Below are positions 1-64,000 of a stretch of 64,000 nt of DNA, one piece after another; the first letter of the stretch is position 1, and each line of letters opens with the position of its first letter. Source of the DNA: a virus; the IMG/VR virus record IMGVR_UViG_3300020463_000009, positions 45,064 through 109,063 of that record; one strand, written 5' to 3'. A model generated the notes under the pieces. That model did not search any database. It was not told the origin of the DNA and worked only from the letters and a program-made list of their open reading frames with translations. Position numbers and translations under genes: made by a program.

Positions 1-1496
1 TCTTTGGTCCAGAACCAATGCATTGGCCATACAAATATCACAATAACGTTTCTATAAGTGTTGATAATGCTAATAGATACATTGATAAAAACGGTGTTCT
101 ATGGGGTATGGGATATCCTAGAACAGGATTCCAAGATTCACAATCTCATTACTCATCATACTTTGGTGAAATGAATATGAGATTTTGGGAATACAGACGT
201 TCAGAGGATATGAACGCAGGTGGTTACCAAGAAATGAGAGGTCATCACACAAATCCTAGAAGACAAGAATTTACAACACCAAGAGTTATACAATTACACG
301 AAGAAAGAGATAGTTGTATGCTTCTTATGGAAAATGGAGAATTATACAGAAACGGTGAACAATCAAATGGTGAAATGGGACACGGTAATACTCAATCAGA
401 CAGAAATGGTTTTTACAGAGTTCACGGTTTAGAAGATACAAGAGTTATTAAATCTTGTTGTTATCCTTGGAACAACACTAAACAAGTTATGTGTTTAGAT
501 GAATTAGGTCACGTTTGGGTTTGGGGTTATAATGACCAAGGTCAAGTAGGTGATGGTAGAACACAAAACAAAACAGCACCTTACAGAATACCAGCAAAAT
601 ATTTTGATAACGAAAAAATTATTGATATCGGTTCAACAGGTAATAGTTCGTATGCTAGAACAGCAAGCGACCAAATATATGCTTGGGGTAATAACGGTAT
701 CGGACAATTAGGTGATGGTACTACAACTGACAAATACAGACCTGTAAAAATGACAGGTTGGGATCCAGTTGCTAACAATGGTATCGCTGTGTTTATGTGT
801 GAAGGACAAGGTGATGATACTTGGGTTGTTATATTAGATGGTAATGGTTACACACACTGGTGTGGTGAAAACAACTACGGTAACTTTGGTAATGGTACTA
901 CAACAAACACAACTACTTTTACTAAAAACGAAACAACACCTAACGGAGATATTGTTGACATTTGGATTCATTATTACAATGGTTACAAATCAGGTTACTT
1001 TAGAACAAAAGATGGTACAACTTACGGATATGGCCACGCAGGTACATATTACGCATTAGGAACAGGTAATACAGGTAACGTTACCACTCCAGCAGTTGTA
1101 CAAAAGGTTACAAATTTAAAAGAAGTTAAAACTTCTTGCAACTATTCAGACCAAGCTAGAACATTCTGGATAACAGATAGTGGTGAATCATTCTGTTATG
1201 GTTATGACTCAAGAAATTCTATGTTGCACCCACAGGCAGGTACAAACTGGACTGGTGAAGATGGTAACTATCATCCTTTCCACTGGTATATGCCTAACTC
1301 AAAACCGGTTACAATGAGAATTACAACAGATGACCAAGGCTCTGCTGAATATGCAGGTACTTATCACTTTATTGATGAGTTCGGAAAAGTATATTATTGG
1401 GGTCGTTCAAACTGGTTGTCTTCAACACATAACTGGTGGGGACATAGTTGGACATCACCTAATGGCCAACCAACATCAACAGGTCAAGGAAGATAA
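1..1496 (+). CDS. RCC1/BLIP-II-repeat beta-propeller protein, 5' truncated (putative virion/adhesin)
   Basis: Repeats such as VWVWGYNDQGQVGDG, IYAWGNNGIGQLGDG and HWCGENNYGNFGNG; the frame is open from the window edge to the ATG at 18. Confidence 0.75.
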   Translation, partial: FGPEPMHWPYKYHNNVSISVDNANRYIDKNGVLWGMGYPRTGFQDSQSHYSSYFGEMNMRFWEYRRSEDMNAGGYQEMRGHHTNPRRQEFTTPRVIQLHEERDSCMLLMENGELYRNGEQSNGEMGHGNTQSDRNGFYRVHGLEDTRVIKSCCYPWNNTKQVMCLDELGHVWVWGYNDQGQVGDGRTQNKTAPYRIPAKYFDNEKIIDIGSTGNSSYARTASDQIYAWGNNGIGQLGDGTTTDKYRPVKMTGWDPVANNGIAVFMCEGQGDDTWVVILDGNGYTHWCGENNYGNFGNGTTTNTTTFTKNETTPNGDIVDIWIHYYNGYKSGYFRTKDGTTYGYGHAGTYYALGTGNTGNVTTPAVVQKVTNLKEVKTSCNYSDQARTFWITDSGESFCYGYDSRNSMLHPQAGTNWTGEDGNYHPFHWYMPNSKPVTMRITTDDQGSAEYAGTYHFIDEFGKVYYWGRSNWLSSTHNWWGHSWTSPNGQPTSTGQGR

Positions 1497-1505
1497 AAAA
1501 ATTAT

Positions 1506-1513
1506 TATAAATA
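1506..1513 (+). promoter_or_regulatory. T4-type late promoter TATAAATA
   Basis: Exact gp55 consensus in an intergenic gap, followed by RBS AAGGAG. Confidence 0.8.
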
Positions 1514-1540
1514 GTAATAATACTAAAGGAGAAAACTAAA

Positions 1541-1957
1541 ATGGCACAGAAAATTTATGGTGTAAATGATATTGCTCAAGAAGACGATTTTGTCGCTCCT
1601 GTGGTAACTGAAGATAAGACGCCAGATTACATTGATAACATTGACGGAAAAGCTTACTTTTCTTATGATGACTCAAAGGTAACGGTTGACGCTTCAGGTA
1701 CAAATGCTTCAAAATACGGTGTTGCTGTATTAGACGCTTCAGACGCAGACGACTTGGTAATATTAAATAAACTTAAAACTACAAACAAAATACAGGTTGC
1801 AGTTGCAGAAATTCAATCTACTTTTGATGTAGCAAATCCTAGGCATTTACAACTTGAAGGTCTTGTAGCTAATGAATCAGGTTTAGCAACTAAAATTGCA
1901 ACTTTAAAATCTGACATTAACGCAATATATTCAGGTTACGGTCTGCCAACAGATTAA
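1541..1957 (+). CDS. hypothetical protein
   Basis: 138 aa ORF with AAGGAG RBS behind a late promoter. Confidence 0.7.
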   Translation: MAQKIYGVNDIAQEDDFVAPVVTEDKTPDYIDNIDGKAYFSYDDSKVTVDASGTNASKYGVAVLDASDADDLVILNKLKTTNKIQVAVAEIQSTFDVANPRHLQLEGLVANESGLATKIATLKSDINAIYSGYGLPTD

Positions 1958-1981
1958 TAGGAATTAATAAGGAAAAATAAT

Positions 1982-13652: not shown

Positions 13653-15176
13653 ATGGCACAATTATTTGGATTTTCTATCACTAGGGTTAAACAACCCCAG
13701 GATCCAAAACAAAGCTTTACTACACCACAAGCGGAAGACGGTACACAAACCGTCGCCGCTGGTGGTTATTTTGGCCAGTACCTTGATATGGAAGGTACTG
13801 CTAAAAATGAGCAGGAACTTATTAGAAGATATAGAGAGATTGCATTACACCCCGAGTGTGATATGGCAATTGAAGATATTGTTAACGAGGCTATCGTTGC
13901 TAATGAGTTGAAAGACGCAGTTAAGCTTGACTTGGATAATGTAGAATATGGAAAAGAAATCAAAGGCAAAATAGATAACGAATTTAAAGAAATATTGAGG
14001 TTGATGAACTTCAATACTAGAGGTCACGATTTATTTAGAAGATGGTATGTTGATGGCAGAATCTATTATCATAAAATTATAGATAGAGATTCACCAGTAA
14101 AAGGTATAACTGAATTAAGATATATCGACCCTAGAAAAATTAAAAAAATTAGAGAAATTAGAAAGAAAAGACCTGATGGTGCTACACCATATGGTCTTAC
14201 GGTTGTTGATGAGTTTGAAGAATACTTTATCTACAACGAGAAAGGTGTATCTAATACTACTTCAGGTGGTATTAAGATTGCTCCAGACGCAATATCATTT
14301 TGTCCGTCTGGTATAATTGACCAAAATAAAAATTTGGTTTTATCTTATTTACATAAGGCAATTAAACCTGTAAATCAGTTGCGTATGATTGAAGACGCTT
14401 CTGTTATTTACAGAATAGCAAGAGCACCTGAAAGAAGAATATTTAAAATTGATGTTGGTAATTTACCTAAAGTAAAAGCTGAACAATATCTACGTGATGT
14501 TATGGCAAGATATAGAAATAAACTTGTCTATGACGCAAGCACAGGTGAAATCAAAGACGATAGAAACTATATGTCTATGTTGGAAGATTTCTGGTTGCCA
14601 AGTAGAGAAGGTGGTAGAGGTACACAAATTGATACTTTACCAGGTGGTGCTAATTTAGGAGAAATTGCAGACATAGAATATTTTAGAGCGAAGTTATATC
14701 GTTCTTTAAATGTTCCTGTAAGTAGATTAGAGTCTTCTTCAGGATTTAATTTAGGTCGTTCTACTGAAATAACAAGAGACGAATTGAAATTTACTAAATT
14801 TGTTCAAAGATTAAGAAAGAAATTTACTGAACTCTTTAACGATTTATTAAGAACACAATTAGTCTTAAAAGGTGTTATTGCTGAAGAAGAATGGCATAAT
14901 TTAAGAGATAGAATTCAATATAGTTTTTTACAAGATGGACACTTTGCAGAATTGAAAGAGTCAGAAATGTTAATGGAAAGATTGAGATTGGCAGATTCAA
15001 TGAGAGACTATGTTGGTAAATACTATTCTGTTGAATTTATCAGAAAACAAGTATTAAGACAAACTGATAAAGAAATACAGGATATTGACAAACAAATTAG
15101 AACAGAAATTGATGACGGTATAATATCAGTACCAACAGGCTTTGGTGGTGATGACTTTACTAGAGAAATCAAATAA
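13653..15176 (+). CDS. gp20: portal protein gp20
   Basis: RRWYVDGR, YRIARAPERRIF, EDFWLPSREGGRGT, ITRDELKF. Confidence 0.97.
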   Translation: MAQLFGFSITRVKQPQDPKQSFTTPQAEDGTQTVAAGGYFGQYLDMEGTAKNEQELIRRYREIALHPECDMAIEDIVNEAIVANELKDAVKLDLDNVEYGKEIKGKIDNEFKEILRLMNFNTRGHDLFRRWYVDGRIYYHKIIDRDSPVKGITELRYIDPRKIKKIREIRKKRPDGATPYGLTVVDEFEEYFIYNEKGVSNTTSGGIKIAPDAISFCPSGIIDQNKNLVLSYLHKAIKPVNQLRMIEDASVIYRIARAPERRIFKIDVGNLPKVKAEQYLRDVMARYRNKLVYDASTGEIKDDRNYMSMLEDFWLPSREGGRGTQIDTLPGGANLGEIADIEYFRAKLYRSLNVPVSRLESSSGFNLGRSTEITRDELKFTKFVQRLRKKFTELFNDLLRTQLVLKGVIAEEEWHNLRDRIQYSFLQDGHFAELKESEMLMERLRLADSMRDYVGKYYSVEFIRKQVLRQTDKEIQDIDKQIRTEIDDGIISVPTGFGGDDFTREIK

Positions 15177-18043: not shown

Positions 18044-19228
18044 ATGGCCGAGACAGACAATAAAGTAGAGGCTTTGGAAAAAGAAGCGGTAGTAGAAGCT
18101 AGTGCTAACCCACAAGCTGACGCTCCGAAGAAGAATGCTGTACCGGCTGAACCTTCAAAAATGTCCAACGAGGCAGAAGATTTAGGTCCAGCGGTTGTAA
18201 AACCTACAGATTCTAATCCAGACGCTACGAAAAAAACTAAACAAGTTTCTGGCGATGCTCAACAAAAATCTGCTGGTCCTGCTGACGCAATGCCAAAGAT
18301 TAAAGAAGAGTCGGAAGAAACTAACGAAGGTTCGGAAGAAATCAAAGAAGGCGAAATGCCAAAAGCAGCTCTTGACGCTCTTAAAAAACATAATGATAAG
18401 AAAGAAGACAAGTCCGAGAAATCAGAATCAGATGAGAAAAAATCTGAAAAAGAAGGATACGGAATGAAGTCAGCTTCTTACAAAATGAAAAAAGAGGAAG
18501 TTGATGAGCATATGGACGCATTAGTAGCTGGACAAGATGATTTATCCGAAGAATTTAAAACAAAAGCTGCAACCGTTTTTGAATCAGCAGTCAATTCTAA
18601 AGTAAAAGAAATTGCTGAAACAATGGATGCAGATTACAACACGAAATTAGAGCAAGAAAGTGGAAAAGCAAAAGAAGAGTTAACTGAAAAAGTTGATTCT
18701 TACTTGTCTTACGTTGTTGAAGAGTGGATGAAAGAAAACGAAATCGCTCTTGAACGAGGAATTAAAGGCGAGATTGCTGAAGACTTTATTACAGGTCTTA
18801 AAAAACTTTTCTCTGAACATTATATTGATGTTCCAGATGAGAAGTATGACGTTTTAGAAGCGCAAGCAGCTAAAATTGAAGAACTGAATAAAAAGTTAAA
18901 CGAGCAAATTGAATCGAATGTTGAACTAAACAAAGACAACGCAGAGAAAACTAAAAACGAAGTTTTAGCTGATGTTGCTAATGATTTAGCAGACACTCAA
19001 AAAGAAAAATTTGCTAAACTTGCTGAAGAAATTGAATACTCAAACGCAGAAGACTTTAAGAAAAAGTGTGAGACTATTAAAGAATCATATTTTGGACAAA
19101 AGAAAGAAGCGACTGAGTCTTTAGATGATGTGGCGGCTGATGGTGAACTTTCAAACGAAGATTTATCAAAAGCAATGGCTGCTTACACTGCCGCTATAAG
19201 CAAAACAAAAGATATTAAAATATCTTAA
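18044..19228 (+). CDS. gp22: prohead core scaffold gp22
   Basis: LSEEFKTKAATVFESAV, VDSYLSYVVEEWM; lies between gp21 and gp23. Confidence 0.93.
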   Translation: MAETDNKVEALEKEAVVEASANPQADAPKKNAVPAEPSKMSNEAEDLGPAVVKPTDSNPDATKKTKQVSGDAQQKSAGPADAMPKIKEESEETNEGSEEIKEGEMPKAALDALKKHNDKKEDKSEKSESDEKKSEKEGYGMKSASYKMKKEEVDEHMDALVAGQDDLSEEFKTKAATVFESAVNSKVKEIAETMDADYNTKLEQESGKAKEELTEKVDSYLSYVVEEWMKENEIALERGIKGEIAEDFITGLKKLFSEHYIDVPDEKYDVLEAQAAKIEELNKKLNEQIESNVELNKDNAEKTKNEVLADVANDLADTQKEKFAKLAEEIEYSNAEDFKKKCETIKESYFGQKKEATESLDDVAADGELSNEDLSKAMAAYTAAISKTKDIKIS

Positions 19229-19254: not shown

Positions 19255-20595
19255 ATGTACTTATCCGAAACTCACGAAAAAAAATGGCAGCCAGTCCTAG
19301 AGCATCCTGATTTACCAAAAATCGGTGATTCTTACAGACGTGCCGTCACCTCTGTTATCTTGGAAAACCAAGAAAGAGCTTCTAAAGAAGACGCTGCTTT
19401 CTTATCAGAAGCTGCACCTACTAACGCAACTGGTTCAGCAATCTCTAACTGGGATCCAATCCTAATTAGTTTGGTAAGAAGAGCAATGCCTAATTTAATT
19501 GCTTACGATATCGCAGGTGTTCAACCTATGACCGGTCCAACTGGTCTTATATTTGCTATGAGAAGCAGATACACTTCACAAACTGGCGCAGAAGCTATGT
19601 TTGACGAAGCTGATACTGATTTCTCTGGTAGAAATGCCGCTGGTTCAAGTGTAGATGGTTATTCATCTACTGCTCAGGCAGGAACTAACCCAGCAGTATT
19701 AAACGACTCTTCACCAGGTACTTTCACAAAAGGTACTGCTATGACTACAGCTGCGGCTGAAGCATTAGGTGACGCAAGTGGCAACGCTTTTGCTGAAATG
19801 GCTTTCTCAATCGAGAAATCTACGGTAACTGCTAAGTCAAGAGCTCTTAAAGCAGAATACACTATGGAACTTGCTCAAGACTTAAAAGCAATCCACGGTT
19901 TAGACGCTGAGACTGAACTTGCGAACATTTTATCTGCTGAGATTCTTGCAGAAATCAACAGAGAAGTTGTAAGAACAATTTACATCAACTCTGAAAAAGG
20001 TGCTCAAGCAAATACGACAACTGCTGGTATCTTTGATTTAGACACAGACTCAAATGGTAGATGGTCAGTTGAGAGATTCAAAGGTCTTATGTTCCAATTG
20101 GAAAGAGACGCAAACAGAATCGCTCAGAGAACAAGAAGAGGTAAAGGTAATATGATAATCTGTTCTTCAGATGTTGCCTCTGCTCTTCAAATGGCAGGTG
20201 TATTAGACTATACTCCAGCTCTTAACAATAACCTAAATGTTGATGACACAGGTAATACTTTTGCAGGTGTTCTTAACGGTAGATATAAAGTATATATTGA
20301 CCCATATTCAGCAAACTCACCAGCAACAAAACAATTCTACGTTGTTGGTTACAAAGGTACTTCACCTTATGACGCTGGTATGTTCTATTGTCCATATGTA
20401 CCTCTACAAATGGTTAGAGCTGTTGGTCAAGATACGTTCCAACCAAAAATCGGTTTCAAGACTAGATATGGCTTAGTTGCTAATCCATTCGCTGAAACTG
20501 GTGCGATTTCAGGTGCTGCTACAGCAGTAAATGACGCTGGTTCTGCTAACTCTAACAGATACTACCAAAAAGTACAAGTTGCAAACTTAATGTAA
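19255..20595 (+). CDS. gp23: major capsid protein gp23
   Basis: GVQPMTGPTGLIFAMR, KSRALKAEYTMELAQDLKAIHGLDAE, FQPKIGFKTRYG. Confidence 0.98.
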   Translation: MYLSETHEKKWQPVLEHPDLPKIGDSYRRAVTSVILENQERASKEDAAFLSEAAPTNATGSAISNWDPILISLVRRAMPNLIAYDIAGVQPMTGPTGLIFAMRSRYTSQTGAEAMFDEADTDFSGRNAAGSSVDGYSSTAQAGTNPAVLNDSSPGTFTKGTAMTTAAAEALGDASGNAFAEMAFSIEKSTVTAKSRALKAEYTMELAQDLKAIHGLDAETELANILSAEILAEINREVVRTIYINSEKGAQANTTTAGIFDLDTDSNGRWSVERFKGLMFQLERDANRIAQRTRRGKGNMIICSSDVASALQMAGVLDYTPALNNNLNVDDTGNTFAGVLNGRYKVYIDPYSANSPATKQFYVVGYKGTSPYDAGMFYCPYVPLQMVRAVGQDTFQPKIGFKTRYGLVANPFAETGAISGAATAVNDAGSANSNRYYQKVQVANLM

Positions 20596-20680: not shown

Positions 20681-21307
20681 ATGACAACTACAAACGCATT
20701 ATCAAGGCAACCGACTAAATTAGATTTAGCCTCACCAACGCAGTTTAAGTTTCAGATATTGAAACTACCTAAAGTAGAATACTTTTGTACTGCTGTTAAT
20801 TTACCTGGTTTAAGCCTCAATACGGTAACTCAACCAACACCTTTAGCAGATATACCATTACCAGGAGAGAAGTTATCTTTTGGTGACCTAGAAATGACAT
20901 TTTTAGTAGATGAAAATTTAGAAAACTATCAAGAGATAAGTGGATGGCTGTTTGGATTAGGCTTTCCTAAATCTCGTACACAATTCGCAAACTTGGTAGA
21001 AGCCGCTAAAGACCGCTTTCCAACGAACGGAAAAGACAGCCAGACGACAGACGCAGGTAAAGTTAAGTACGGTGCTCAACCTATAGGTCCTGTATTCTCG
21101 GATGCTACTTTGAATATATTGTCTAGTAAGAATAGGGCAAATATAGAAGTTAGATTTAACAATGTATTTCCAATAGGTTTAAGTGCTTTACAATTTACGC
21201 AACAAGCAACAGATGTTGATTACTTATCAGCAACGGTTACCTTTCAATATAAACTATACGAATTCGCAACAAAAAACGCTTCAAGTACAACAACAATCGT
21301 ATCCTAA
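20681..21307 (+). CDS. gp3: tail tube terminator/completion protein gp3
   Basis: PKVEYFC..NLPG, FLVDENLENY, SDATL, F..VFP..LS; CCTAAATA late-promoter variant upstream. Confidence 0.8.
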   Translation: MTTTNALSRQPTKLDLASPTQFKFQILKLPKVEYFCTAVNLPGLSLNTVTQPTPLADIPLPGEKLSFGDLEMTFLVDENLENYQEISGWLFGLGFPKSRTQFANLVEAAKDRFPTNGKDSQTTDAGKVKYGAQPIGPVFSDATLNILSSKNRANIEVRFNNVFPIGLSALQFTQQATDVDYLSATVTFQYKLYEFATKNASSTTTIVS

Positions 21308-25374: not shown

Positions 25375-26063
25375 AACCAGAGATATTAGGAAATATAAAG
25401 TTTGGACCATATGTGGCATTGATGAAAGTACATCAACCATTAATTGATGGTCTATTAAAAAGAGCAGAAAAAAAAGAAGAAGGTTCAGGAAATTCTGAAC
25501 TAGCAAGTTTAATGTCAGACCAAAGAGGCTATAATATGGAAGATAAAGGTTGGTTTGTTAAAGAATTTCAACCATACATAGACTCTTATGTAGATGGTAA
25601 TTGTGAATTTTTAGGTACAACTTATAAAGAACCAGAATGGTCTAACAAATTTAATCTAATGAGTTTATGGATTAATTATATGAAAGAAAATGAATATAAT
25701 CCATCACATACACATAGCGGAATGTTATCTTGGGTTATGTATTTAAAAACACACGACCTAGAAAAAGAAAGAAAAGAATATACAGGTAGAAGTGCTGGAC
25801 CAGGTGCAACTATATTTCATTATGGTGAACACTCTTTCCCACAATGGGCAACTCATACACAATCATATTTACCTGAAGAAGGATATGTATGGATTTTTCC
25901 TGCTTTGTTGAGACACGAAGTTATACCTTTTAAAACACCAGGTACCAGAATAAGTGTATCAGGCAATTTATACTTTAAACATCCAGGTCAAGAATCAGCA
26001 GCAGAACCGGCACCTATGGATCCGGACTTTAAAAGACCACCAAACGGTACAATGATTAGATAA
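25371..26063 (+). CDS. 2OG-Fe(II) oxygenase
   Basis: WINY..NPSHTH..LSWVMYL; IFPALLRHEV..RISVSGN. Confidence 0.85.
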   Translation: MKPEILGNIKFGPYVALMKVHQPLIDGLLKRAEKKEEGSGNSELASLMSDQRGYNMEDKGWFVKEFQPYIDSYVDGNCEFLGTTYKEPEWSNKFNLMSLWINYMKENEYNPSHTHSGMLSWVMYLKTHDLEKERKEYTGRSAGPGATIFHYGEHSFPQWATHTQSYLPEEGYVWIFPALLRHEVIPFKTPGTRISVSGNLYFKHPGQESAAEPAPMDPDFKRPPNGTMIR

Positions 26064-41140: not shown

Positions 41141-43610
41141 GAATGTAATTGAACACAAAGGCAAACTTCTTATTCGTGGTGTATTAAACGGAAAAGATTA
41201 CAAAGATAAAATAGATTTTGGTCCTACTCTCTACGCCTTATCACAGGAAAAATCAGAATTTAAAAATCTACAAGGTCAGTATTTAAAACCTATAACATTT
41301 AAAGATATTAGGTCTACTCGTCAATTCAAAAAAGATTATGGAGCACAATCACCATTATTTGGTTTAGAACGTTATCATTATCAATACATTGGCAAAAATT
41401 ATCCAGAGGCCATACAATGGTCAAAAGAACATATCAAAATATTCACATTAGATATAGAAACAACCTGTGAAAATGGTTTTCCAGATGTAGAAAATCCTAT
41501 TGAAGAGTTGTTATGTATCACGGTAAAAAATCAATCTAATAAACAAATATTAACTTGGGGTGTTGGCGACTTTCATACAGATAGAACAGACGTTACCTAT
41601 GTCAGATGTAGAGACGAAAAACAATTAATGTTTGAGTTTATGAAATTCTGGTTGAAAAATTATCCTGATGTTATCACAGGCTGGAATACAAAATTCTTTG
41701 ACTTACCTTATTTAATGAATAGAATTAAATTGATTGCAGGTGATAAAGTTGCAAACAGAATGTCGCCTTGGAACTTAATCAATCGTGATGAGATTGTTGT
41801 AAGAGGCAGACCACAAACCGTTTATCAACTATTTGGTATTGTAATGTTAGACTATCTTGATTTGTACAAATGGTTTATACCAACAAGACAAGAGAGTTAT
41901 AGATTAGATTTTATTGGCGAACTAGAACTAGGCCAAAAGAAACACGAAAACCCTTTTGAAACATTTAAAGATTTCTATACTAAAGACTTTCAAAAGTTTG
42001 TAGATTACAATATTCAAGATGTAGAAATTGTTGATTCATTAGAAGATAAGTTAGGTCTTATTGACTTATCATTAACCGTAGCATATGAATCTAAAGTAAA
42101 CTATGATGATATATTTTCGCAAGTAAGAGTATGGGACACATTGATTGCAAACCATTTAATGAAAAAGAATATATGTGTACCACCAAGAGAAGAACATAGT
42201 AAAGAAACAAAATACGAAGGTGCTTACGTAAAAGAACCTCAACTAGGCGGCCATAATTGGATTGTGTCGTTTGATATAAACTCACTATATCCACATATTA
42301 TTATTCAATATAATATTTCACCGGAAAAAATTATCGGTTCGTCTAGTAAAGGTGTATCTGTAAATAAAATGTTATCACATACACCACTTGACTTTTTAAA
42401 AACAGAGGGTGCTTGTTTAACACCTAATGGTGCAATGTTTAAAAATGATAGTCAAGGGTTTCTACCTGAAATGATGGAAACAATGTACAATGAACGTGTA
42501 ATTTACAAGAAAAGAATGTTAAAGGCTAAAAAAGAATATCAAAAAACAAAAGACCCTAAACTTGTAAAAGAAATTTCACGTTGTCATAATATTCAATGGG
42601 CAAGAAAGATTGCCTTAAACTCAGCTTATGGTGCAGTAGGTAATCAATACTTTAGATACTATGATGTAAGACAGGCAAGTGGTATTACAACTGCTGGTCA
42701 ATTTATTATTCGTTTCATTGAAGAAAAAATGAATACATATCTAAATCAAATATTACAAACTAAAGATAAGGTTGATTATATTGTGGCGTCTGATACAGAT
42801 TCAATTTATGTTTGTTTAGATAAATTGGTAGAGAAGACTTGTAAAGATAAAACAAATGACCAGATTACAGATTTTATTGGTAAAGTTTGTGATAATAAAT
42901 TAGAACCATATATTGAAAAATGTTTTGAAGAACTAGCTGACTATTCAAATGCTTTTAAAAATGCAATGGTAATGAAACGAGAAGTTATTGCCAATAAAGG
43001 TATTTGGGTTGCAAAGAAAAGATATATGTTAAATGTTATTGATGAAGAAGGCATTAGACTTGCTGACCCTAAACTTAAACTTATGGGTATTGAGGCAGTT
43101 AAATCATCAACACCACAGGTTTGTAGAGGTAAAATTAAAGACGCAATCAAAATCATTATGGGTAAAAGTGAAAATGAACTACACGATTTTGTTGCAAACT
43201 TTAAAAAAGAATTTAAAGAATTGCCACCAGAGGCAATTGCTTTTCCTAGAAGTTGTAATAACTTGAGGAAGTACCGTGATAACAATAGTATTTTTATCAA
43301 AGGTACTCCAATTCACGTCAAAGGTGCGTTGATATATAATCATCAAATAAAAGAGTTTGGTTTACAAAATAAGTTTCCTTACATACAAGAAGGCGACAAG
43401 ATTAAGTTTATCAAATTAATAGAGGCAAATCCTTTTAAGTTTGATGTTATAAGTTATATAACTAGTTTGCCTACGGAGTTTAAATTAAAACAATACGTAG
43501 ATTATGAAACACAATTTGAGAAGACCTTTTTAGACCCTATGAGATTTATTCTTCAGGCTATAGGTTGGGAACACGAACCAAAGGCAACGTTGGAGGCATT
43601 TTTTGGATGA
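41127..43610 (+). CDS. gp43: family B DNA polymerase gp43
   Basis: DIET exonuclease, SFDINSLYP, KIALNSAYG, SDTDS, KKRY; C-terminal clamp motif TLEAFF. Confidence 0.98.
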   Translation: MNFYKNVIEHKGKLLIRGVLNGKDYKDKIDFGPTLYALSQEKSEFKNLQGQYLKPITFKDIRSTRQFKKDYGAQSPLFGLERYHYQYIGKNYPEAIQWSKEHIKIFTLDIETTCENGFPDVENPIEELLCITVKNQSNKQILTWGVGDFHTDRTDVTYVRCRDEKQLMFEFMKFWLKNYPDVITGWNTKFFDLPYLMNRIKLIAGDKVANRMSPWNLINRDEIVVRGRPQTVYQLFGIVMLDYLDLYKWFIPTRQESYRLDFIGELELGQKKHENPFETFKDFYTKDFQKFVDYNIQDVEIVDSLEDKLGLIDLSLTVAYESKVNYDDIFSQVRVWDTLIANHLMKKNICVPPREEHSKETKYEGAYVKEPQLGGHNWIVSFDINSLYPHIIIQYNISPEKIIGSSSKGVSVNKMLSHTPLDFLKTEGACLTPNGAMFKNDSQGFLPEMMETMYNERVIYKKRMLKAKKEYQKTKDPKLVKEISRCHNIQWARKIALNSAYGAVGNQYFRYYDVRQASGITTAGQFIIRFIEEKMNTYLNQILQTKDKVDYIVASDTDSIYVCLDKLVEKTCKDKTNDQITDFIGKVCDNKLEPYIEKCFEELADYSNAFKNAMVMKREVIANKGIWVAKKRYMLNVIDEEGIRLADPKLKLMGIEAVKSSTPQVCRGKIKDAIKIIMGKSENELHDFVANFKKEFKELPPEAIAFPRSCNNLRKYRDNNSIFIKGTPIHVKGALIYNHQIKEFGLQNKFPYIQEGDKIKFIKLIEANPFKFDVISYITSLPTEFKLKQYVDYETQFEKTFLDPMRFILQAIGWEHEPKATLEAFFG

Positions 43611-44092
43611 AAAAATTTAAGAATAATATAGAAGACTTTTTTAAATGGGTAAAAGGTACAGAGTTAGTTGAACTTGATGACATTGATGTATCTGAAGACC
43701 CGGTAAGACCTGAATTAACATTAGGTTTTAGAATTACTAACGGCAGAAAAATATTTGGTCTAAAATATAATGATGAGATAGAGGCAATAGTTTGTGTTGC
43801 ATTATGTCCTGAAGTACCACACACGGTAAGAGAAATGGATTATATGTCTCAAGCGGCCAATCAAGAAGACCAAAGAGGCGAAATAGTTGTTGCATACACC
43901 GTATGGTCAAGAAAAAGAGGTGCAGGCAAAGAGATAATTAATAAGTTGGCTGAATGGGCAAAACAAAATAATTTTCAAAGAGTAGTTACCTTATCACCAT
44001 TAACACCAATGGCTACACATTTTCATATAAAGAATGGTGCAAAACAAATTAAAGTAAGTGAAGATACTCAAAATTTTGAATATAAACTATGA
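43607..44092 (+). CDS. GNAT-fold hypothetical protein
   Basis: AYTVWSRKRGAGKEII..VVTLSP..HFHIKNGA resembles GNAT motifs A and B. Confidence 0.6.
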   Translation: MKKFKNNIEDFFKWVKGTELVELDDIDVSEDPVRPELTLGFRITNGRKIFGLKYNDEIEAIVCVALCPEVPHTVREMDYMSQAANQEDQRGEIVVAYTVWSRKRGAGKEIINKLAEWAKQNNFQRVVTLSPLTPMATHFHIKNGAKQIKVSEDTQNFEYKL

Positions 44093-53681: not shown

Positions 53682-55972
53682 AAACGTTTAAAGAAAGTAT
53701 CATAGACATACCGAGAAGAACATATGCTAAGGCTGTGTTTGATGACGCTGATACTCCTAATCCTAAAATCAAACCTAGTGTTGTTGTATTAATCAACAAA
53801 CAACTAGAAGAATTTGAAAGTGAGTATCCTGTTTTAAAAGTTTCTCTTATAGGTTCTATTCTTACAAAGAGATATAGAAATGACGCAGACCTAGACCTTA
53901 ATGTATTGTTTGATGTACCTGCTGATAAACAAGAAGAAGAAAGAACAAGACTATCTAAAAAGTATTTGTCTGCTTCTAATCCAGATAACATACAAGGTAA
54001 ATTAATACCAGGTTCTAAACACCCTATTAATTATTATTTCATAACAGATAAGAAAACTTATGATGACCAAAATAAAAAGGCTGACGCCGTGTTTGATATT
54101 GAGGGTAATAAGTTTATAAAAAGACCTGACGATTTTACATTTGACCCTAGTTTATACATAAAAGATTTTGAGAAAAAAGTACAAGAGTTAGATGTCATTA
54201 AAGGTGAATTAAAAAGAGACATTATTGATTACAGAGAATTAGAAGAATTAGAACCTAATGATATTTTAAATTTACAAGATAGAATTAATGATAAGTTAGA
54301 AGAAATAGAAGATAGTATCAAAGCTATTATTAAAGTAGGTGATGGCGTTGACGCAGATAGAAGAGCTGCATTTGATTCAGATATGACACCAGACCAGATA
54401 CAAAAGTTTGGTATCAAGAATAGATTACCTAAAAATGTTATCTATAAAATGTTAGAGAAGTATCACTATTTAAACTTCTATAAAAAATGTAAAAAGATTT
54501 TAGATGATGGTAAAGTATCTGATAAAGAAATAGATGATTTAGAAATGCACGAAGCAAAAGGTAAATCAATTGCATTTAGTTTTGGTAGATTTAATCCACC
54601 TACAACTGGCCACGAAAAGTTAATTAATAAAGTGGCAAGTATTAGAGCAAATGATTATAAAATTTATTTAAGTAGAAGTCAGGATCCTAAAAAGAATCCA
54701 TTATCGCCTAGACAAAAACTAGATATAATGAGAAAGATGTTTCCTAGACACGCAAGAAATATAGAAGTTAATAATACAAATATGATATTAGATATTTGTA
54801 CACTACTTTACAAAAGAGGTTATAGTGATATAACTATGGTTGTTGGTAGTGATAGAGTAAGAGAATTTGATACAATAATTAAAAAGTATAATGATGTAAA
54901 ATCAAGACACGGTTATTATAATTTTGATAACATTAATGTTGTATCTGCTGGCGAAAGAGACCCCGATGCCGATAACGTATCAGGTATGTCAGCAAGTAAA
55001 ATGAGAGCAGCTGCCTCAAGCAACGATATTAATAGTTTTAAAAGAGGACTACCAAGAGGTGTTGACGCAACTGCCATTATGAAACAAGTTAGACAAGGTA
55101 TGAATCTAGCCGCTCAATACACAGGCGAGACTAGAGAGGTCGTACCATTTAAAGATTTTGAACACCAACAAATTAGAGATTTATATATTAGAGATATGAT
55201 ATTTAATGTAGGTGAACAAGTCAGTTATGTTAAAGAAGATATCGAAGGCAAAGTAGTTAGAAAAGGAACTAATTACATTGTACTAGAAGACAATAAAAAT
55301 AATTTACACAAAGCTTGGATATGGGATTGTGTACCTGTATCGGCTGATAGAGAGGTAGAAGTGCGAGAATATAATACAGATGTTGATTATGGCTTTAAAG
55401 CTGTATCAACAATAGAAGAAGATTTAGACGCTCAACCCCAAGATAAAGATGTTAAGAAGAAAAAAGGTACTCAACCTAAAAAATACTATAAAGATTTATC
55501 AAAAGGTGAGAAAGAAAAAAGAGCAGACTATTTTAAGAATAAAGATACTACAAAGAATGATAATAAACCAGCACCAGGCGATAAGGGTGCTAAAACTAAA
55601 CCAAGTATTCATACTACTAAATTTAAGAAGATGTATGGTGAACTTAAAAATGAGTTGGTAAGTAAAGTAAAAGAGAGTACAGATATAGGTCAAGATTACT
55701 ATAAACATACTTCAACGATAACTCCTGGTGAGCCAGATTATCCTGGATTTGAAAATCCTACTTACAAACCATCACAACCAGGTAGTGGTGATAACCCTAA
55801 AGTCAAGAAAGTCAAAGGGTTTCTTGAAAGAGAAACAGATAAACCATCAGAAAAAGATGTAAAAGAATGGGCTGCTACAGAGTCCACAATGAATAAATAT
55901 AGGGAACGATATCAAGAAGAATGGGAAGCAAAGCTAAAAGAGGCTGTTGCTAAGATGATAGAGAAACTATAA
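53678..55972 (+). CDS. multidomain protein: Pol-beta-type nucleotidyltransferase + HxGH cytidylyltransferase-like domain + low-complexity C-terminus
   Basis: LIGSILT..DADLDLNV; FGRFNPPTTGH, VVGSDRV, SAGERDPD, MSASKMR; start MKTFKES at 53678. Confidence 0.8.
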   Translation: MKTFKESIIDIPRRTYAKAVFDDADTPNPKIKPSVVVLINKQLEEFESEYPVLKVSLIGSILTKRYRNDADLDLNVLFDVPADKQEEERTRLSKKYLSASNPDNIQGKLIPGSKHPINYYFITDKKTYDDQNKKADAVFDIEGNKFIKRPDDFTFDPSLYIKDFEKKVQELDVIKGELKRDIIDYRELEELEPNDILNLQDRINDKLEEIEDSIKAIIKVGDGVDADRRAAFDSDMTPDQIQKFGIKNRLPKNVIYKMLEKYHYLNFYKKCKKILDDGKVSDKEIDDLEMHEAKGKSIAFSFGRFNPPTTGHEKLINKVASIRANDYKIYLSRSQDPKKNPLSPRQKLDIMRKMFPRHARNIEVNNTNMILDICTLLYKRGYSDITMVVGSDRVREFDTIIKKYNDVKSRHGYYNFDNINVVSAGERDPDADNVSGMSASKMRAAASSNDINSFKRGLPRGVDATAIMKQVRQGMNLAAQYTGETREVVPFKDFEHQQIRDLYIRDMIFNVGEQVSYVKEDIEGKVVRKGTNYIVLEDNKNNLHKAWIWDCVPVSADREVEVREYNTDVDYGFKAVSTIEEDLDAQPQDKDVKKKKGTQPKKYYKDLSKGEKEKRADYFKNKDTTKNDNKPAPGDKGAKTKPSIHTTKFKKMYGELKNELVSKVKESTDIGQDYYKHTSTITPGEPDYPGFENPTYKPSQPGSGDNPKVKKVKGFLERETDKPSEKDVKEWAATESTMNKYRERYQEEWEAKLKEAVAKMIEKL

Positions 55973-56319: not shown

Positions 56320-58322
56320 TGAGTAGATACAGAAAAACATTTAAAGAGGCAATGGCTGAAGTACAACTTAATGAAGTTGGTTATTTGCAATCTAAATTAA
56401 ACGACAGACAAATTCAAAATATCAAAAAAATTTGGCAATTTAAAACCAAAAAAGATATAACACCAGCAGTTAAAAAGATGATTAAGAATATGGATCCAAT
56501 AACTCAAGGTGCAATTAAAGACGCAGGTATAAATCTATTATCAGACATTGCTGAAGGCATTATTGCTGAAGGTAGAATGTCAGAGATTGACGCTATGCAA
56601 AAAGCAGGTAAGTCAGCGGCTGAGATTGCTAAACTTATGAAACTACCTGTTAAAACGGTAAAAAGTATTTTAGGTGAAGAAGATGGTGATTCTGCTCAAG
56701 ATATGAATGACGCAAAACCAGGTAAAGAAAAAATTAGAGAAGAAGACGAAAAAGAAAAAGAAGAAGATAAGAAAAAGAAAGATAAAGAAGATATAGCTCC
56801 TGATAATGATGTACCAGTAGAAACTAAAAAAGAAGATAGTAAAGGTACAGAAAAATTAGAAGCTGAAATAGAAAAAAAAGATAACGAAATTCAATCTCTG
56901 AAAGTAAAAGCAGAAACAGAAAAAGCAAAAGCAACAAAAAAAGAAACTGAAAAAATGGTAAATCCTGAAACAGGCGAACCATTATTACAAATCGGTGTTG
57001 CATACAAACATCTTAAAGATAAGATGGAAAGAGAAAAAGTAAAAAAAGAAGAAGTCGAATTAGATGAAGTTGCTAACTTTACAGCAACTATGTTAAAAAC
57101 TCTCAAAAAAGAATACGAACCAATGAGAGGTAAAAAAATTACAGCTGCTAGAGCCAGACAATTAATGAATATACTTGATAAGTTAAATGACGCAAACTTA
57201 AATATTTTAAGTAAAGCAAATATACCTTTTGTATCTAGTGGTTCTACATCTAAATTAATGGTTAGAAAAATGAAAGTTAAGGTTACTGATATAGACCCTT
57301 TCAAAGAAGAAATAGAATATGATGAAGATATGTTTGAAGCTTGTTGGACAGGTTATAAACAAGTTGGTTTCAAGAAAAAAGGTGGTAAACAAGTACCTAA
57401 TTGTGTGCCTGAAGAAATAGAAGAAGGCAGATTTACTAAATTACATAACTTACTAATTCAAAAAGGCCGAATGGCACAAGCTAAAGATAATCAAGGTGAA
57501 AAAAGAACAGATGTCGAAATTGCAAAACAAAAGAAAATGCTTGGTATAAATGAAGTTTTAAATAAAGATGATGAAAAAGTTGTATCTAAAGTAAAAGATA
57601 TGTTAAAAGGTGCTAGTGAAAAACATAAAAGTCAAGCCAAAGAATTAGACAAAGCATTAAAAAATGAAATGAAAAAAGATGACGCTTACGCAATAGGTAT
57701 GGCACAGGCTAAAAAAGTTATGAATGATGAGCCACCTTTAGAAAAGAAAACAATTAAAAAAGGTCACGAAATTGCAGATAAGATTTTAAATAAAGAAGAA
57801 ACAATTAAAGAATTTAAAAAGATGACGGTTTATGTAAAAGACCAAAATAAAAGAAACAAAGCGATTGATGACCTAAAAAAACAAAAATTTAAAGTAGATG
57901 TTTTTGGTGATAAAATTCACGTTGATGGCAAAGGTGCAGACCTGAACAAATATGCTACTGACCTTAAAAATTTTTATGGTGCTAATATTGATATCAAAAA
58001 AGAAAATGCGCCAACGGCTGCTGATATGGATAGATTAAAAAAACAAGGTATGAAACCTAAAATGAAAAACGAAGACCACCCAGCAAAAGAAATTTATGAA
58101 CAGATTAAGGGTTTAAAAAACAAGGCTGAAAAATCAGGTATGCCATATGGTATACTTAAAAAAGTATATGATAGAGGAATGGCAGCTTGGCGAGGTGGCC
58201 ACAGACCAGGTGCAACACAGCAACAATGGGCTTTTGCTAGAGTAAATTCATTTGTTACCAAATCAAGTGGTACTTGGGGTGGTGCAGATAAAGATTTAGC
58301 TAAACAAGTAAAGGGAAAATAA
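56319..58322 (+). CDS. K/E-rich modular putative internal head protein
   Basis: EACWTGYKQVG.KKKGGKQVPNCVP and LKNKAEKSG..VYDRGMAAW..HRPGATQQQWAFARVNSF modules. Confidence 0.7.
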   Translation: MSRYRKTFKEAMAEVQLNEVGYLQSKLNDRQIQNIKKIWQFKTKKDITPAVKKMIKNMDPITQGAIKDAGINLLSDIAEGIIAEGRMSEIDAMQKAGKSAAEIAKLMKLPVKTVKSILGEEDGDSAQDMNDAKPGKEKIREEDEKEKEEDKKKKDKEDIAPDNDVPVETKKEDSKGTEKLEAEIEKKDNEIQSLKVKAETEKAKATKKETEKMVNPETGEPLLQIGVAYKHLKDKMEREKVKKEEVELDEVANFTATMLKTLKKEYEPMRGKKITAARARQLMNILDKLNDANLNILSKANIPFVSSGSTSKLMVRKMKVKVTDIDPFKEEIEYDEDMFEACWTGYKQVGFKKKGGKQVPNCVPEEIEEGRFTKLHNLLIQKGRMAQAKDNQGEKRTDVEIAKQKKMLGINEVLNKDDEKVVSKVKDMLKGASEKHKSQAKELDKALKNEMKKDDAYAIGMAQAKKVMNDEPPLEKKTIKKGHEIADKILNKEETIKEFKKMTVYVKDQNKRNKAIDDLKKQKFKVDVFGDKIHVDGKGADLNKYATDLKNFYGANIDIKKENAPTAADMDRLKKQGMKPKMKNEDHPAKEIYEQIKGLKNKAEKSGMPYGILKKVYDRGMAAWRGGHRPGATQQQWAFARVNSFVTKSSGTWGGADKDLAKQVKGK

Positions 58323-60073: not shown

Positions 60074-60097
60074 TATTAATATTGATTGGAGTATATA

Positions 60098-60328: not shown

Positions 60329-60521
60329 ATCTTTTATAGAAGATAAAAATTTAGATGACTTTGAGGAAGATGTTTTAGGTGAAAAAGCACCTAATACTGC
60401 TGACGCTATGAAGCGTCATAAAGCAGGCAAGGCTGGTTTTACAGATAAAGCACACCTTAAAGCAAAAGGTTTGATACCAAGAGCCGATGGTTCTAAAAAA
60501 GTATCAGACAAGTATAAGTAA
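60315..60521 (+). CDS. putative internal head protein
   Basis: MKKFKSFIE N-terminus. Confidence 0.55.
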   Translation: MKKFKSFIEDKNLDDFEEDVLGEKAPNTADAMKRHKAGKAGFTDKAHLKAKGLIPRADGSKKVSDKYK

Positions 60522-60532
60522 GGAAAGGGAAA

Positions 60533-61333: not shown

Positions 61334-61812
61334 TGAGTAGAGGAATTGATTTATTAATTACTTACAGAGTTATCAAATTATTGGTAACACCGTTTGAAAA
61401 AATGCCAGCGTTTAAAAAAGGTATTATAGACGCAGACGGTAAAGTATTAATAAAATTTAAAAAGGTTCAAGGTAATGATAAAAAACATTATACTATTTTA
61501 CATAGGTTTGTTTTTAATTTAAAAAGAATATTAAAAAAGGTAGGACTTGGTTCAAGACTAGGTTCATTTGCTGTCGCATTAGCATTATTAATTAAAGAAG
61601 ATAAAAGTTTTGCTCTGTATAAAGACGCCATAGAATCTGGTGTCATTATGTATCTAAAAGAACAAGGCCAATATGAAAACTTGTTAAAAGAAGAAGGCGA
61701 AGTGCCTTCTATGATTTTTGAACAAGAGCCATATATGACTTGTTTTGGTATTGATGTATATGATTTAGGAGGAGAATTAATCTCGGAGAAAGAATATGCC
61801 CAAACACTATAA
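61333..61812 (+). CDS. conserved T4-like hypothetical protein
   Basis: YRVIKLLVTPF..AFKKGIID.DG..HRFVFNLKRIL. Confidence 0.75.
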   Translation: MSRGIDLLITYRVIKLLVTPFEKMPAFKKGIIDADGKVLIKFKKVQGNDKKHYTILHRFVFNLKRILKKVGLGSRLGSFAVALALLIKEDKSFALYKDAIESGVIMYLKEQGQYENLLKEEGEVPSMIFEQEPYMTCFGIDVYDLGGELISEKEYAQTL

Positions 61813-62167
61813 AGAAATGATGGACGAAATCATCAATAAGATGGATGAAGACGCACCAGCAAATTCAGTCGCAGGTGGTGGAGTTGATATGGCTCCAAAT
61901 GCAAAACACCCATTAACAAAATCTCATAATAAATATCAAAAGAAAAATAAAGACGCTGAAAATGTTTTAAAAGATTTGATTATGAAAAGAATGGGGAGTA
62001 ATGTAAAAGAACATAACGATAATAATAATATAGTTTTAAAAGGTGTTTTAAACACACTAGATAGAATAGATGAAAAAGTTGATAAGTTATCAGGTATTAT
62101 TAGAGAAGAAGTTAAGATAGTAGAAATAGAAGATAAAATAACTTTAAGAGAAAAATCTAAAGTATGA
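61796..62167 (+). CDS. hypothetical protein
   Basis: EDAPANSVAGGGV motif. Confidence 0.65.
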   Translation: MPKHYKEMMDEIINKMDEDAPANSVAGGGVDMAPNAKHPLTKSHNKYQKKNKDAENVLKDLIMKRMGSNVKEHNDNNNIVLKGVLNTLDRIDEKVDKLSGIIREEVKIVEIEDKITLREKSKV

Positions 62168-62745
62168 GAAGTTTCAAAGAATATATATCGGGGTTTAGTA
62201 TAGGTCCAACCTCTCACTTGGCACCTATAGCTAGTCTAGGTGATACACCACCTAAAGGCGCTCAACATAGGTCAAAAAGAGCAGTCGGTATAAATGCTAA
62301 TACAGATAAAACTTTGTATATGAAACTTTTGAGAAAGGCTATGTCAACAATGCCTGGTTCTCAAAAACAAAAAGAGATTAAAAAAGAAATAGAAAAAGTA
62401 CAAAAAAGATTAGGTATTAAAAAAGAAGATACAAATAGAATACCAAGAAAACCTGGTCAAAAAGCAGGTTCGGATAAACACTCTGATTTATATACAGATG
62501 AAAATCCAAAAGGTACAATACACGGTTTAGGTTTTACAGATTCAAAAAAAGCAAGAGAGTCAGTAAACAAAATAAAAAATTCTGGTAAAACTCACGCTCA
62601 CAAAATGCAGGCTGCTATTGCAATGTCGCAAAGAGCTAAAGTCGCAAGTGAAAGAGCAAAGGATCCTGAAAAGAAAAAAAATCTAGGTCAGGCTCATAAG
62701 ATTTATCAGACTTATATAGATACTAATAAAAAAAGTAAGGATTAA
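62164..62745 (+). CDS. putative internal head protein
   Basis: MRSFKEYI N-terminus; HSDLYTDENPKGTIHGLGF. Confidence 0.65.
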   Translation: MRSFKEYISGFSIGPTSHLAPIASLGDTPPKGAQHRSKRAVGINANTDKTLYMKLLRKAMSTMPGSQKQKEIKKEIEKVQKRLGIKKEDTNRIPRKPGQKAGSDKHSDLYTDENPKGTIHGLGFTDSKKARESVNKIKNSGKTHAHKMQAAIAMSQRAKVASERAKDPEKKKNLGQAHKIYQTYIDTNKKSKD

Positions 62746-62746
62746 T

Positions 62747-63331
62747 ATGGAACTATTAATTAGTTTAGCAATGAAATTTTGGCAATGGTCAATAGTTATA
62801 GCAGTTATAGTAATTGGTTTTATTATAAACTTGTTTGACAAAAAGAAAGCAAAGTGTAATACTTTTGCTTATACGGCTATGCCATCAATGAAACCTCTAC
62901 CTATCAAAACAAAAGGTAAGGGTTTTTTTAAAGGTGTACTTTTATGGTTACTAGGTACGAGACAATGGGAAATAGCAAATGATTGGGAATATACTTTAAA
63001 CGGAAACAAATACGTTATACCAGCAGGTTTTAAATTTGATGGTGCTAGTATACCTAAATTTTTGCATACGTTCTTGTCGCCAGTAGGTGTTTTATTAATG
63101 GGTGGTCTTGTTCACGACTATGCATATAAATATGAAACACTATTAAGAGCAAACAAAAGAGATACACTAGGTAAAATATCTCAAAAAAGAGCAGATGAAA
63201 TCTTTAGAGATATTAATATAGAGAACAATGGCTTTTATGTAATGAACTGGTTAGCTTACTGGTCATTAAGATTGGGTGGCTTCGTGGCGTGGAACGGTCA
63301 TAGAAAAAGAAACTCAAAAATAGGAGAGTAA
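62747..63331 (+). CDS. DUF1353-family protein with N-terminal TM
   Basis: IPAGFKFDGASIP, LVHDYAY, RADEIF. Confidence 0.8.
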   Translation: MELLISLAMKFWQWSIVIAVIVIGFIINLFDKKKAKCNTFAYTAMPSMKPLPIKTKGKGFFKGVLLWLLGTRQWEIANDWEYTLNGNKYVIPAGFKFDGASIPKFLHTFLSPVGVLLMGGLVHDYAYKYETLLRANKRDTLGKISQKRADEIFRDINIENNGFYVMNWLAYWSLRLGGFVAWNGHRKRNSKIGE

Positions 63332-63332
63332 T

Positions 63333-63443
63333 ATGTTTACTACAATAGCTTTTATAATTGGTTTTATAGCAGGTTGGTTTGTTAACGAAAAACTAGAAGA
63401 CTTGACTGCTATGGCTAAAAAGTTAAAATTTTGGAAAAAGTAA
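63333..63443 (+). CDS. small single-TM protein (36 aa, not in ORF track)
   Basis: MFTTIAFIIGFIAGWFVNEK..KKLKFWKK; AGGAG RBS. Confidence 0.55.
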   Translation: MFTTIAFIIGFIAGWFVNEKLEDLTAMAKKLKFWKK

Positions 63444-63444
63444 G

Positions 63445-63924
63445 ATGATTTTTGGAAGTATGAGAATGATAATGATAGGTGTTATGGTTGCCGGCCTTGC
63501 CGGCGCCGGCGCCTATGTATTTAAGTTAAGAGCTGATAATGCTATATTAAAAGCAAATGCAGTTAAATTAGAATCTGCTATATCAGAGCAGAAACAACTT
63601 ATAGAAAAACAACAAAAAGATTTTAAAGAAATTTTAGAAGCAAATAAAAAATTTAATGAGTTAGTGAATGCTCTTAAAAAAGATATAGATGATTTAGATA
63701 ATAGATTTAACAAAGATGGAAGAGACTTTGGTAAACTTGCAATAGAGAAAACAGAAACGATACAGAGAATAATTAATGGAGCAAGTGATAAAGTATTAAG
63801 ATGTGTTGAGATAGCAGGTGGGGCACCACTTACTGAAGAAGAACTTAACGCAACTAAAAAATCAGAAATTAACAGAGAGTGTCCCTCAATAGCGAACCCG
63901 AATTATGTACCGTATAATAATTAG
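63445..63924 (+). CDS. putative inner-membrane spanin
   Basis: N-terminal TM, coiled coil, C-terminal cysteines; overlaps a lipoprotein gene. Confidence 0.65.
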   Translation: MIFGSMRMIMIGVMVAGLAGAGAYVFKLRADNAILKANAVKLESAISEQKQLIEKQQKDFKEILEANKKFNELVNALKKDIDDLDNRFNKDGRDFGKLAIEKTETIQRIINGASDKVLRCVEIAGGAPLTEEELNATKKSEINRECPSIANPNYVPYNN

Positions 63925-64000
63925 TATTTTAGTAATTTTGTTTTTAACTGGCTGTTCAGGCGTTAAAAAATTAAGTATCTTCAAAGAAGAAGTACCTAGA
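63905..64000 (+). CDS. putative outer-membrane spanin lipoprotein (3' truncated, not in ORF track)
   Basis: MYRIIISILVILFLTGC signal peptide with lipobox LTGC. Confidence 0.65.
   Translation, partial: MYRIIISILVILFLTGCSGVKKLSIFKEEVPR

Follow-up and report, generated by a model that had tools for sequence, protein, structure and literature searches.

A SAR11 phage contig has purged about a dozen short restriction-type words, and the copies that remain lie nearly all directly after a G

The 64,000-nucleotide stretch analysed here, called the window throughout, comprises positions 45,064 to 109,063 of IMG/VR record IMGVR_UViG_3300020463_000009 and is the right-hand portion of a virus contig 109,063 bp long, with 32.5% GC and nearly all genes on one strand. 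The contig is that of a T4-like pelagimyophage, sharing gene order and 78% nucleotide identity with Pelagibacter phage Mosig EXVC030M; HTVC008M and the OM43 phage Melnitz are more distant kin. Its completeness is put at 76% by IMG/VR/CheckV. This SAR11 phage contig has purged about a dozen short restriction-type words, and the remaining copies stand nearly all directly after a G. The window also encodes two DruA-like (DUF4338) proteins, here called DruA1 and DruA2, an MT-A70 family methyltransferase and a small GNAT acetyltransferase-like open reading frame (ORF). The surviving sites and these genes are collected in Table 1.

All nine copies of GATC in the window, and all ten in the whole contig, lie inside GGATCC. 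As the main null model, synonymous codons were shuffled within each gene over the whole contig (200 shuffles). Against this null, a comparison that an earlier sequence-only reading of the window had proposed, GATC is far below expectation (10 observed, 226 ± 10 expected), and GGATCC is neutral (10 observed, 6.8 ± 2.3 expected). GGATCG and CGATCC (0 observed, 6.8 expected) and CGATCG (0 observed, 1.4 expected) are absent, which indicates that exemption of GATC needs a G on both strands and not merely S (C or G). GATGC is present in the window as four copies of GATGC and one of GCATC; with the base before the word included, three of the five read GGATGC and two CGATGC. For the contig, five copies are observed against 140 expected, with GATGC after A or T missing altogether (0 observed, 122 expected), GGATGC at 3 (8.3 expected) and CGATGC at 2 (9.7 expected). 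The sequence-only reading had placed each GATC inside GGATCC and all GATGC or GCATC sites in SGATGC, and exact counts agree (9/9 and 5/5 in the window). It had further held that both words are tolerated only in an S-GAT context; the survivors are indeed defined by context, but the sparing base is G and not S, with CGATCG, GGATCG and CGATCC together at 0 against 8.2 expected.

The same avoidance is visible in codon choice. Asp is encoded 1623 times by GAT and 711 times by GAC; ahead of codons starting with C, the numbers are 9 and 175, and ahead of codons starting with GC they are 4 and 109, a switch that the sequence-only reading had described. In Asp-Pro pairs, the Asp codon tracks the previous base, being GAT in nine of nine cases after G and GAC in 52 of 52 cases after A, C or T. 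The depletion is extreme and is achieved through synonymous choices, and therefore reflects selection and not mutation bias. Selection had been suggested earlier on the same grounds, and both the shuffles and the codon counts bear this out.

Table 1. Surviving sites and candidate genes in the window
Feature	Position	Strand	Remarks
Genome-wide purge of short words	1..64000		Whole-contig observed counts against mononucleotide expectation
GGATCC	761..766		Surviving GATC (at 762), nnG GAT CCn (Asp-Pro) frame
GGATCC	13700..13705		GATC at 13701; Asp-Pro frame, portal gene
GGATCC	19452..19457		GATC at 19453; Asp-Pro frame, major capsid gene; common to 11 relatives
GGATCC	26018..26023		GATC at 26019; Asp-Pro frame
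GGATCC	30203..30208		GATC at 30204; sole intergenic GGATCC
GGATCC	32900..32905		GATC at 32901; Asp-Pro frame; common to 22 relatives
GGATCC	54682..54687		GATC at 54683; Asp-Pro frame
GGATCC	56492..56497		GATC at 56493; Asp-Pro frame
GGATCC	62661..62666		GATC at 62662; Asp-Pro frame
CGATGC	18253..18258	+	Surviving GATGC (at 18254)
GGATGC	18625..18630	+	Surviving GATGC (at 18626)
GGATGC	19302..19307	-	GCATCC on plus strand (GCATC at 19302)
GGATGC	21100..21105	+	Surviving GATGC (at 21101)
CGATGC	54964..54969	+	Surviving GATGC (at 54965)
DruA-like/DUF4338 protein 1 (DruA1), 432 aa, GNAT core	28402..29700	+	Pfam PF14236, 74.4 bits; candidate writer
Small GNAT acetyltransferase-like ORF	43565..44092	+	PF00583, 22.3 bits; precedes MT-A70
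MT-A70 family DNA methyltransferase, 176 aa	44228..44758	+	PF05063, 92.4 bits (threshold 23.9); phrog_359 DNA methyltransferase
DruA-like/DUF4338 protein 2 (DruA2), 365 aa	45079..46176	+	Pfam PF14236, 39.6 bits; phrog_19197; cluster after DNA polymerase; candidate writer

The purge extends well beyond these two words. Measured against a second expectation, calculated from mononucleotide composition, the contig lacks CATG (0 observed, 328 expected), ACWGT (0/221) and CGCG (0/76) entirely, and is strongly depleted in GATC (10/328), TCGA (40/328), CTWAG (29/221), GATGC (5/106), CASTG (6/106) and CGATG (8/106). Under codon shuffling, the expectation for CATG is 170 and that for ACAGT and ACTGT is 151, with none observed. 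In Mosig, ACGT is purged (0/432), and CATG (374 copies) and ACWGT (259) are retained; the contig keeps 194 copies of ACGT, where Mosig has none. HTVC008M purges TCGA (2/456) and CCGA (16/459), and the purge of GATC, CGCG, CGATG and CASTG is common to all three pelagimyophages. That the contig and Mosig, at 78% identity, differ in CATG, ACWGT and ACGT shows that purge lists change fast between close relatives. GANTC is another depleted word: strongly so in HTVC008M (GAATC 28/304, GACTC 15/153) and in the podophages HTVC011P (1/80 and 0/38) and HTVC019P (6/87 and 0/45), and only mildly in the contig and Mosig.

Survival after a 5' G is a common property of these pelagimyophages. In Mosig, 19 of 19 GATC sites are in GGATCC. 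HTVC008M has 83 GATC sites, each of which reads GGATC on one strand or both (28 as GGATCC, 55 one-sided), with none lacking a flanking G where about 316 would be expected. We also retrieved 80 relatives from IMG/VR via the DruA-like gene (about 940 kb). No GATC outside GGATCC is found in 61 of the 80, which hold 66 copies of GGATCC, about the number expected from composition; a few tolerate one-sided sites, and about 12 do not avoid GATC at all, their DruA1 being 78–91% identical. Most of this last dozen have a GC content of 0.28–0.31, compared with 0.32–0.33 in the avoiders.

Six words, namely GATC, GATGC, CTAAG, CGATG, CAGTG and GTCTC, are spared when a G stands 5' of them on one defined strand. 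Under codon shuffling, CTAAG in the contig is neutral when preceded by G (23 observed, 23.1 expected) and depleted when preceded by H (A, C or T; 6 observed, 92 expected). For GATGC, the G-flanked and H-flanked counts are 20 (15.2 expected) and 13 (147 expected) in Mosig, and 14 (15.6 expected) and 9 (178 expected) in HTVC008M; for CGATG in HTVC008M they are 12 (14.7 expected) and 5 (90 expected). CAGTG preceded by A or T does not occur in the contig, Mosig or HTVC008M, and among the 24 relatives that avoid GTCTC, 85% of the surviving copies follow a G. Survivors of each word were also pooled over the relatives avoiding that word, and these pooled survivors, as well as unique sequence contexts, give the same result. 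A 5' C does not substitute: CGATGC is depleted 5–15 fold in the three genomes (2 observed for 9.8 expected, 2 for 14.5 and 1 for 14.7). The sparing base is thus G. TCGA, ACGT, CATG and CGCG are not rescued.

The sequence-only reading attributed the masking to a phage enzyme acting on the adenine of S-GAT, and masking by a phage function does fit the data better than chance or codon constraint. Such an adenine modifier, for instance MT-A70, would alone mask GATC and GATGC; its gene is present in the contig and in Mosig, and GGATCC and GGATGC share GGAT. The proposed target is, however, too narrow. CTAAG, CGATG, CAGTG and GTCTC are spared after G without any GGAT adenine, and an S-GAT adenine mask can therefore not be the explanation; nor are C-flanked sites spared. 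MT-A70 is absent from HTVC008M, where 83 of 83 GATC sites nevertheless carry GGATC and G-flanked GATGC is close to its expectation, and it cannot be the common cause. We regard marking of the S-GAT adenine by MT-A70 or another adenine modifier as barely credible.

Purge lists might instead mirror natural host range only, with the survivors kept by local constraint, either because GGATCC has a function or because of a clash within G-GAY-CC, where GAC would make GGACCC. In the contig, nine of ten GGATCC sites read nnG GAT CCn and GGACCC is absent (0 observed, 8 expected); in Mosig and HTVC008M, GGATCC is more frequent than codon shuffling predicts, and two GGATCC sites are common to 11 and 22 relatives, respectively. 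The frame bias, considered as a signal, was rejected, as the codon-shuffle null predicts the same frame, and the nine GAT codons in nine Asp-Pro cases after G are near the intrinsic preference for GAT (84% before codons starting with A). The GGACCC clash was rejected as a general cause, since HTVC008M does not avoid GGACCC (6 observed, 13 expected). Positional conservation was likewise set aside as an account of GGATCC survival: few sites are common by descent, and most are at scattered, non-homologous positions among the relatives. CTAAG and GATGC preceded by G also remain neutral despite many synonymous escapes. Host range combined with local constraint is, in our judgement, very improbable.

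Podophages provide the decisive control, as HTVC011P, HTVC019P, Mosig and HTVC008M were all isolated on strain HTCC1062. GATC is absent from HTVC011P (0/118) and HTVC019P (0/133). In 79 HTVC019P-like contigs (785 kb), from podophages with the same host group, there is no GATC at all, including no GGATCC where 69 would be expected, and CGATG preceded by G occurs once (142 expected). In 34 HTVC010P-like loci (324 kb), GATC is tolerated (969 observed, 927 expected) and GGATCC depleted (4 observed, 22.8 expected). GGATCC is therefore itself a target in this phage world, one that the myophages ignore, and sparing by a flanking G is specific to the myophage lineage. The podophages further purge CCGG, GGCC, GCGC, CCWGG, GGWCC, GCWGC, CCAGC and GGATG to 0.01 of expectation or less; in the myophages, these eight words are unpurged, at 0.5–1.9 of expectation. 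All eight contain a GG/CC or GC step. GATC, TCGA, CGATG, CGWCG and CGCG are purged in podophages and myophages alike, and four of these five are free of such steps (Fisher p ~0.007). Other words missing from the HTVC010P-like loci are GGCC (0/190), GCCC/GGGC (0/380), ACCGT/ACGGT (0/289), AAGCTT (0/110) and AACGTT (0/110), and Melnitz purges GGWCC (0/110), CCGG and CGCG.

The main rival to a modification is flank specificity of the nucleases themselves. They would reject a G just 5' of the word, their true targets being HGATC, HGATGC, HCGATG, WCAGTG, HCTAAG and HGTCTC, and the phage would need no modification; such enzymes could arise from a diversifying host nuclease family with a common catalytic module intolerant of G at position −1. 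From sequence alone, a word with some of its copies masked looks the same as a longer, degenerate target; the one-sided and two-sided GATC patterns would fit dimeric and strand-by-strand action, respectively; and exceptions to a masking rule pose no problem here. On the other hand, six or more unrelated specificities would have to obey one flank rule, and podophages of the same strain purge GATC and CGATG with no exemption for G. HTVC010P-like phages deplete GGATCC, so that myophages would still have to avoid this word, and the wholesale relief of words with GG, CC or GC steps in the myophages is left unexplained. We consider flank specificity of the nucleases unlikely.

A phage may also be obliged to lack the sites of its own nucleases, if these degrade host DNA in a site-specific manner. 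Several words have no copies at all, and which words these are varies among close relatives (CATG 0 in the contig and 374 in Mosig, ACGT 194 and 0); SAR11 is, according to PMC7029224 and PMC9516812, almost without restriction–modification systems. Ten or more purged words would, however, require ten or more nucleases, and no restriction-endonuclease-like gene was found among the ten window ORFs scanned against Pfam. The flank rule for G is not addressed by self-avoidance either. Because podophages with genomes of only 40 kb purge 13 words, we think self-avoidance quite unlikely.

Judging from the sequence patterns, the G-flanked survivors most likely reflect a DNA modification not yet described and confined to this group of phages. 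In its specific form, a myophage-specific covalent mark placed in a defined context, at 5'-G-G and 5'-G-C steps, is an explanation to which we give slightly better than even credence. Restriction-type nucleases would cut short words, and the phage would remove those words by synonymous changes. The base pair after a G would be marked if it is G or C; a word that starts with G or C and is preceded by G would then carry the mark inside and escape cutting, and such copies would drift neutrally. GATC is a palindrome and would need marking on both strands, so that full safety would come only with GGATCC; marking of a single strand (GGATCH) may protect partially in HTVC008M. Words with internal steps (GGATCC as a BamHI-type site, CCGG, GGCC, GCGC, CCWGG, GGWCC, GCWGC and GGATG) would need no purge in myophages. 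This single rule, that the base pair after a G is protected if it is G or C, would account, if not perfectly, for the six contexts in which words are rescued and for the eight words relieved in the myophages.

Several points weigh against the proposed mark at G-G and G-C steps. CGCG and GATGC are purged despite their GC step, HTVC008M also purges CCGA, GGCC and GGCT, and GCATGC and GCGCGC are not spared. Neither GC nor GG shows a mutational footprint in dinucleotide odds ratios. Three cyanomyophages that have distant DruA-like genes (S-SM2, S-SSM7 and S-T4) were compared with two that do not (S-BM3 and P-SSM2): in the former, CCGG, GCGC and CGCG are still purged, with no clean sparing by G. 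S-SSM7 has no CCGG, and the sole hint among the cyanomyophages is in S-T4, where 11 of 13 CCGG sites are flanked by G or C. Myophages and podophages may meet different natural hosts, and the purge lists could then reflect exposure and not masking. The link to DruA consists of co-occurrence in four related genomes and of a fold match of a predicted structure that ordinary GNATs equal, at a Z of about 9. The dozen or so relatives that bear DruA1 and do not avoid GATC belong to this list too, but we consider them neutral. The sequence statistics and their restriction to myophages are observed; we infer modification as the cause, the marked base and the writer.

The DruA-like GNAT-core paralogues are candidate writers of the mark, which we put forward tentatively and on suggestive evidence. 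Both exceed the PF14236 gathering threshold of 27 bits. DruA-like genes number two in the contig, two in HTVC008M and one in the incomplete Mosig record; none was found in Melnitz or in four podophages. In the Mosig record (MT647606.1), labelled "complete", tblastn finds no counterpart of UvsX, of the gp41-like helicase or of some 16 kb of neighbouring genes (window positions 46100–62100), and genes are truncated at both record ends; the record looks incomplete. DruA1 has peptide deformylase and MazG as neighbours; DruA2 is near the genes for DNA polymerase, GNAT, MT-A70 and UvsX, following DNA polymerase directly in HTVC008M and following GNAT and MT-A70 in the contig. In Melnitz, the place directly after the DNA polymerase gene is taken by a C5-cytosine methylase (MZ577097.1, 4070–5170; PF00145, E 2e-56). 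The GNAT-like ORF and the end of the DNA polymerase gene overlap; the Mosig homologue of this ORF is elsewhere (110164–110664). The Druantia type I operon (DruB-E, with the large DruE helicase) is not present around DruA1 or DruA2, which instead have a phage replication context. None of the three pelagimyophages has an N6/N4 (PF01555), Dam (PF02086) or C5 (PF00145) methylase.

The AlphaFold2 model of DruA1 is confident, with a predicted local distance difference test score of 93.5, and the core of the model (residues 105–376) adopts a GNAT fold. DUF4338 is termed a GNAT domain by the Aravind group in a passage of PMC10853773. The top VIA-align match of the DruA1 model is phage Mu Mom (8bv8_B; Z 9.9, root-mean-square deviation 4.0, 172 of 202 residues), tied with ordinary GNATs at a Z of about 9, and Foldseek E-values are weak (0.05–0.3). 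A profile search of all PDB sequences with DruA1 gave nothing at E ≤ 1, and hence no sequence homology to Mom. In PHROGs, both DruA-like proteins match only a family of unknown function. A search with a distant DruA homologue as query recovered no viral contig, and literature searches found nothing on DruA biochemistry. Synechococcus phage S-SCSM2R encodes, between clamp-loader genes, a 373-aa homologue of the DruA-like core (PQ898602.1, 2204–3325), labelled "methylcarbamoylase mom" by its depositors; 16 Synechococcus phage records hold such homologues. Taken together, pelagimyophages may tentatively be proposed to carry an undescribed post-replicative mark at G-G and G-C steps, with DruA-like (DUF4338) enzymes, nominally Mom-like in fold and built around a GNAT core, as its writers.

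The Mom protein of phage Mu (PDB 8bv8) has a GNAT fold and modifies adenines within a short degenerate context, yielding N6-carbamoylmethyladenine. The candidate here would resemble it in principle, as a phage GNAT-fold protein whose context-limited mark blocks restriction only where sites overlap that context. Unlike Mom, DruA1 has an extra N-terminal domain, lacks sequence similarity to it and has a match tied with those of ordinary GNATs; the inferred context consists of G-G and G-C steps, and the target base is probably different too. Overlapping Dam or Dcm methylation blocks ClaI, XbaI or similar enzymes only in certain flanks, and phages are known with multispecific C5-methylases. As in those cases, a site would be protected only if its flank completes the word of the modifying enzyme; in contrast to them, the pelagimyophages have none of the methylases named above, and the context would be only a dinucleotide step. 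Flank-dependent protection by an overlapping modification is thus familiar from Dam/Dcm overlap and Mom. Some phages have partial, motif-specific replacement of guanine by 7-deazaguanine, in which G is likewise modified only in certain short contexts, so that the flank decides protection; the contexts differ.

Restriction-site avoidance in phages is itself classical and has been surveyed by Rusinov et al. (2018; PMC6286503). The present case resembles it, in that words of 4–6 nucleotides in the style of Type II sites are depleted synonymously and the lists differ by lineage. It departs from the usual picture in the near-absolute purge of about a dozen words, in survivors that follow a 5' G rule at neutral frequency, and in a host group reported in passages of PMC7029224 and PMC9516812 to be almost without restriction–modification. 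GANTC depletion in some pelagiphages, most marked in podophages, is described in a passage of PMC9516812. That is a loss of a motif from SAR11 phages without an identified host restriction enzyme, like the low GANTC of HTVC011P, HTVC019P and HTVC008M seen here; the searched passages of that work do not include the GATC/GGATCC rule, the many other words or the myophage-specific relief. Literature searches found no account of the GATC/GGATCC context rule in pelagiphages. Flank-dependent survival at neutral frequency, over many words, by one rule and in one abundant lineage, appears new; the novel part appears to be a lineage with neutral G-flanked survivors and without Dam, N4/N6 or C5 methylase.

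The purge is strong in both phage groups, which conflicts with the view, found in parts of PMC9516812 and PMC7029224, that SAR11 is nearly free of restriction–modification. As a side observation, full-length DpnII-family (GATC) endonuclease genes were found in 13 of 151 species genomes (about 8%) of an alphaproteobacterial order with small genomes (0.7–1.1 Mb), and GATC is 3–7 fold low around those genes. With a GC of 0.38–0.42, there is no ground for calling that order SAR11, and it is not used as support.

SAR11 phages thus appear to be under intense and varied restriction-type selection, in conflict with the common view of SAR11 defences; if this is true, restriction pressure that is both strong and diverse comes from SAR11 populations in nature, contrary to their reputation. 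Few T4-like phages in the sea are as abundant as pelagimyophages, and the mark, if real, would render these immune to much of the range of restriction specificities, leaving the footprint of words spared only after G. The sequence statistics lead to testable predictions, namely the location of the mark (G-G and G-C steps), the enzymes that it would block and the cultured phages in which to look (HTVC008M and Mosig). DUF4338/DruA proteins, uncharacterised in phages and in Druantia, would gain a candidate function, and this would be the first functional clue to the DruA family of Druantia. More generally, hidden DNA modifications of uncultured viruses could be revealed by sites whose survival depends on context.

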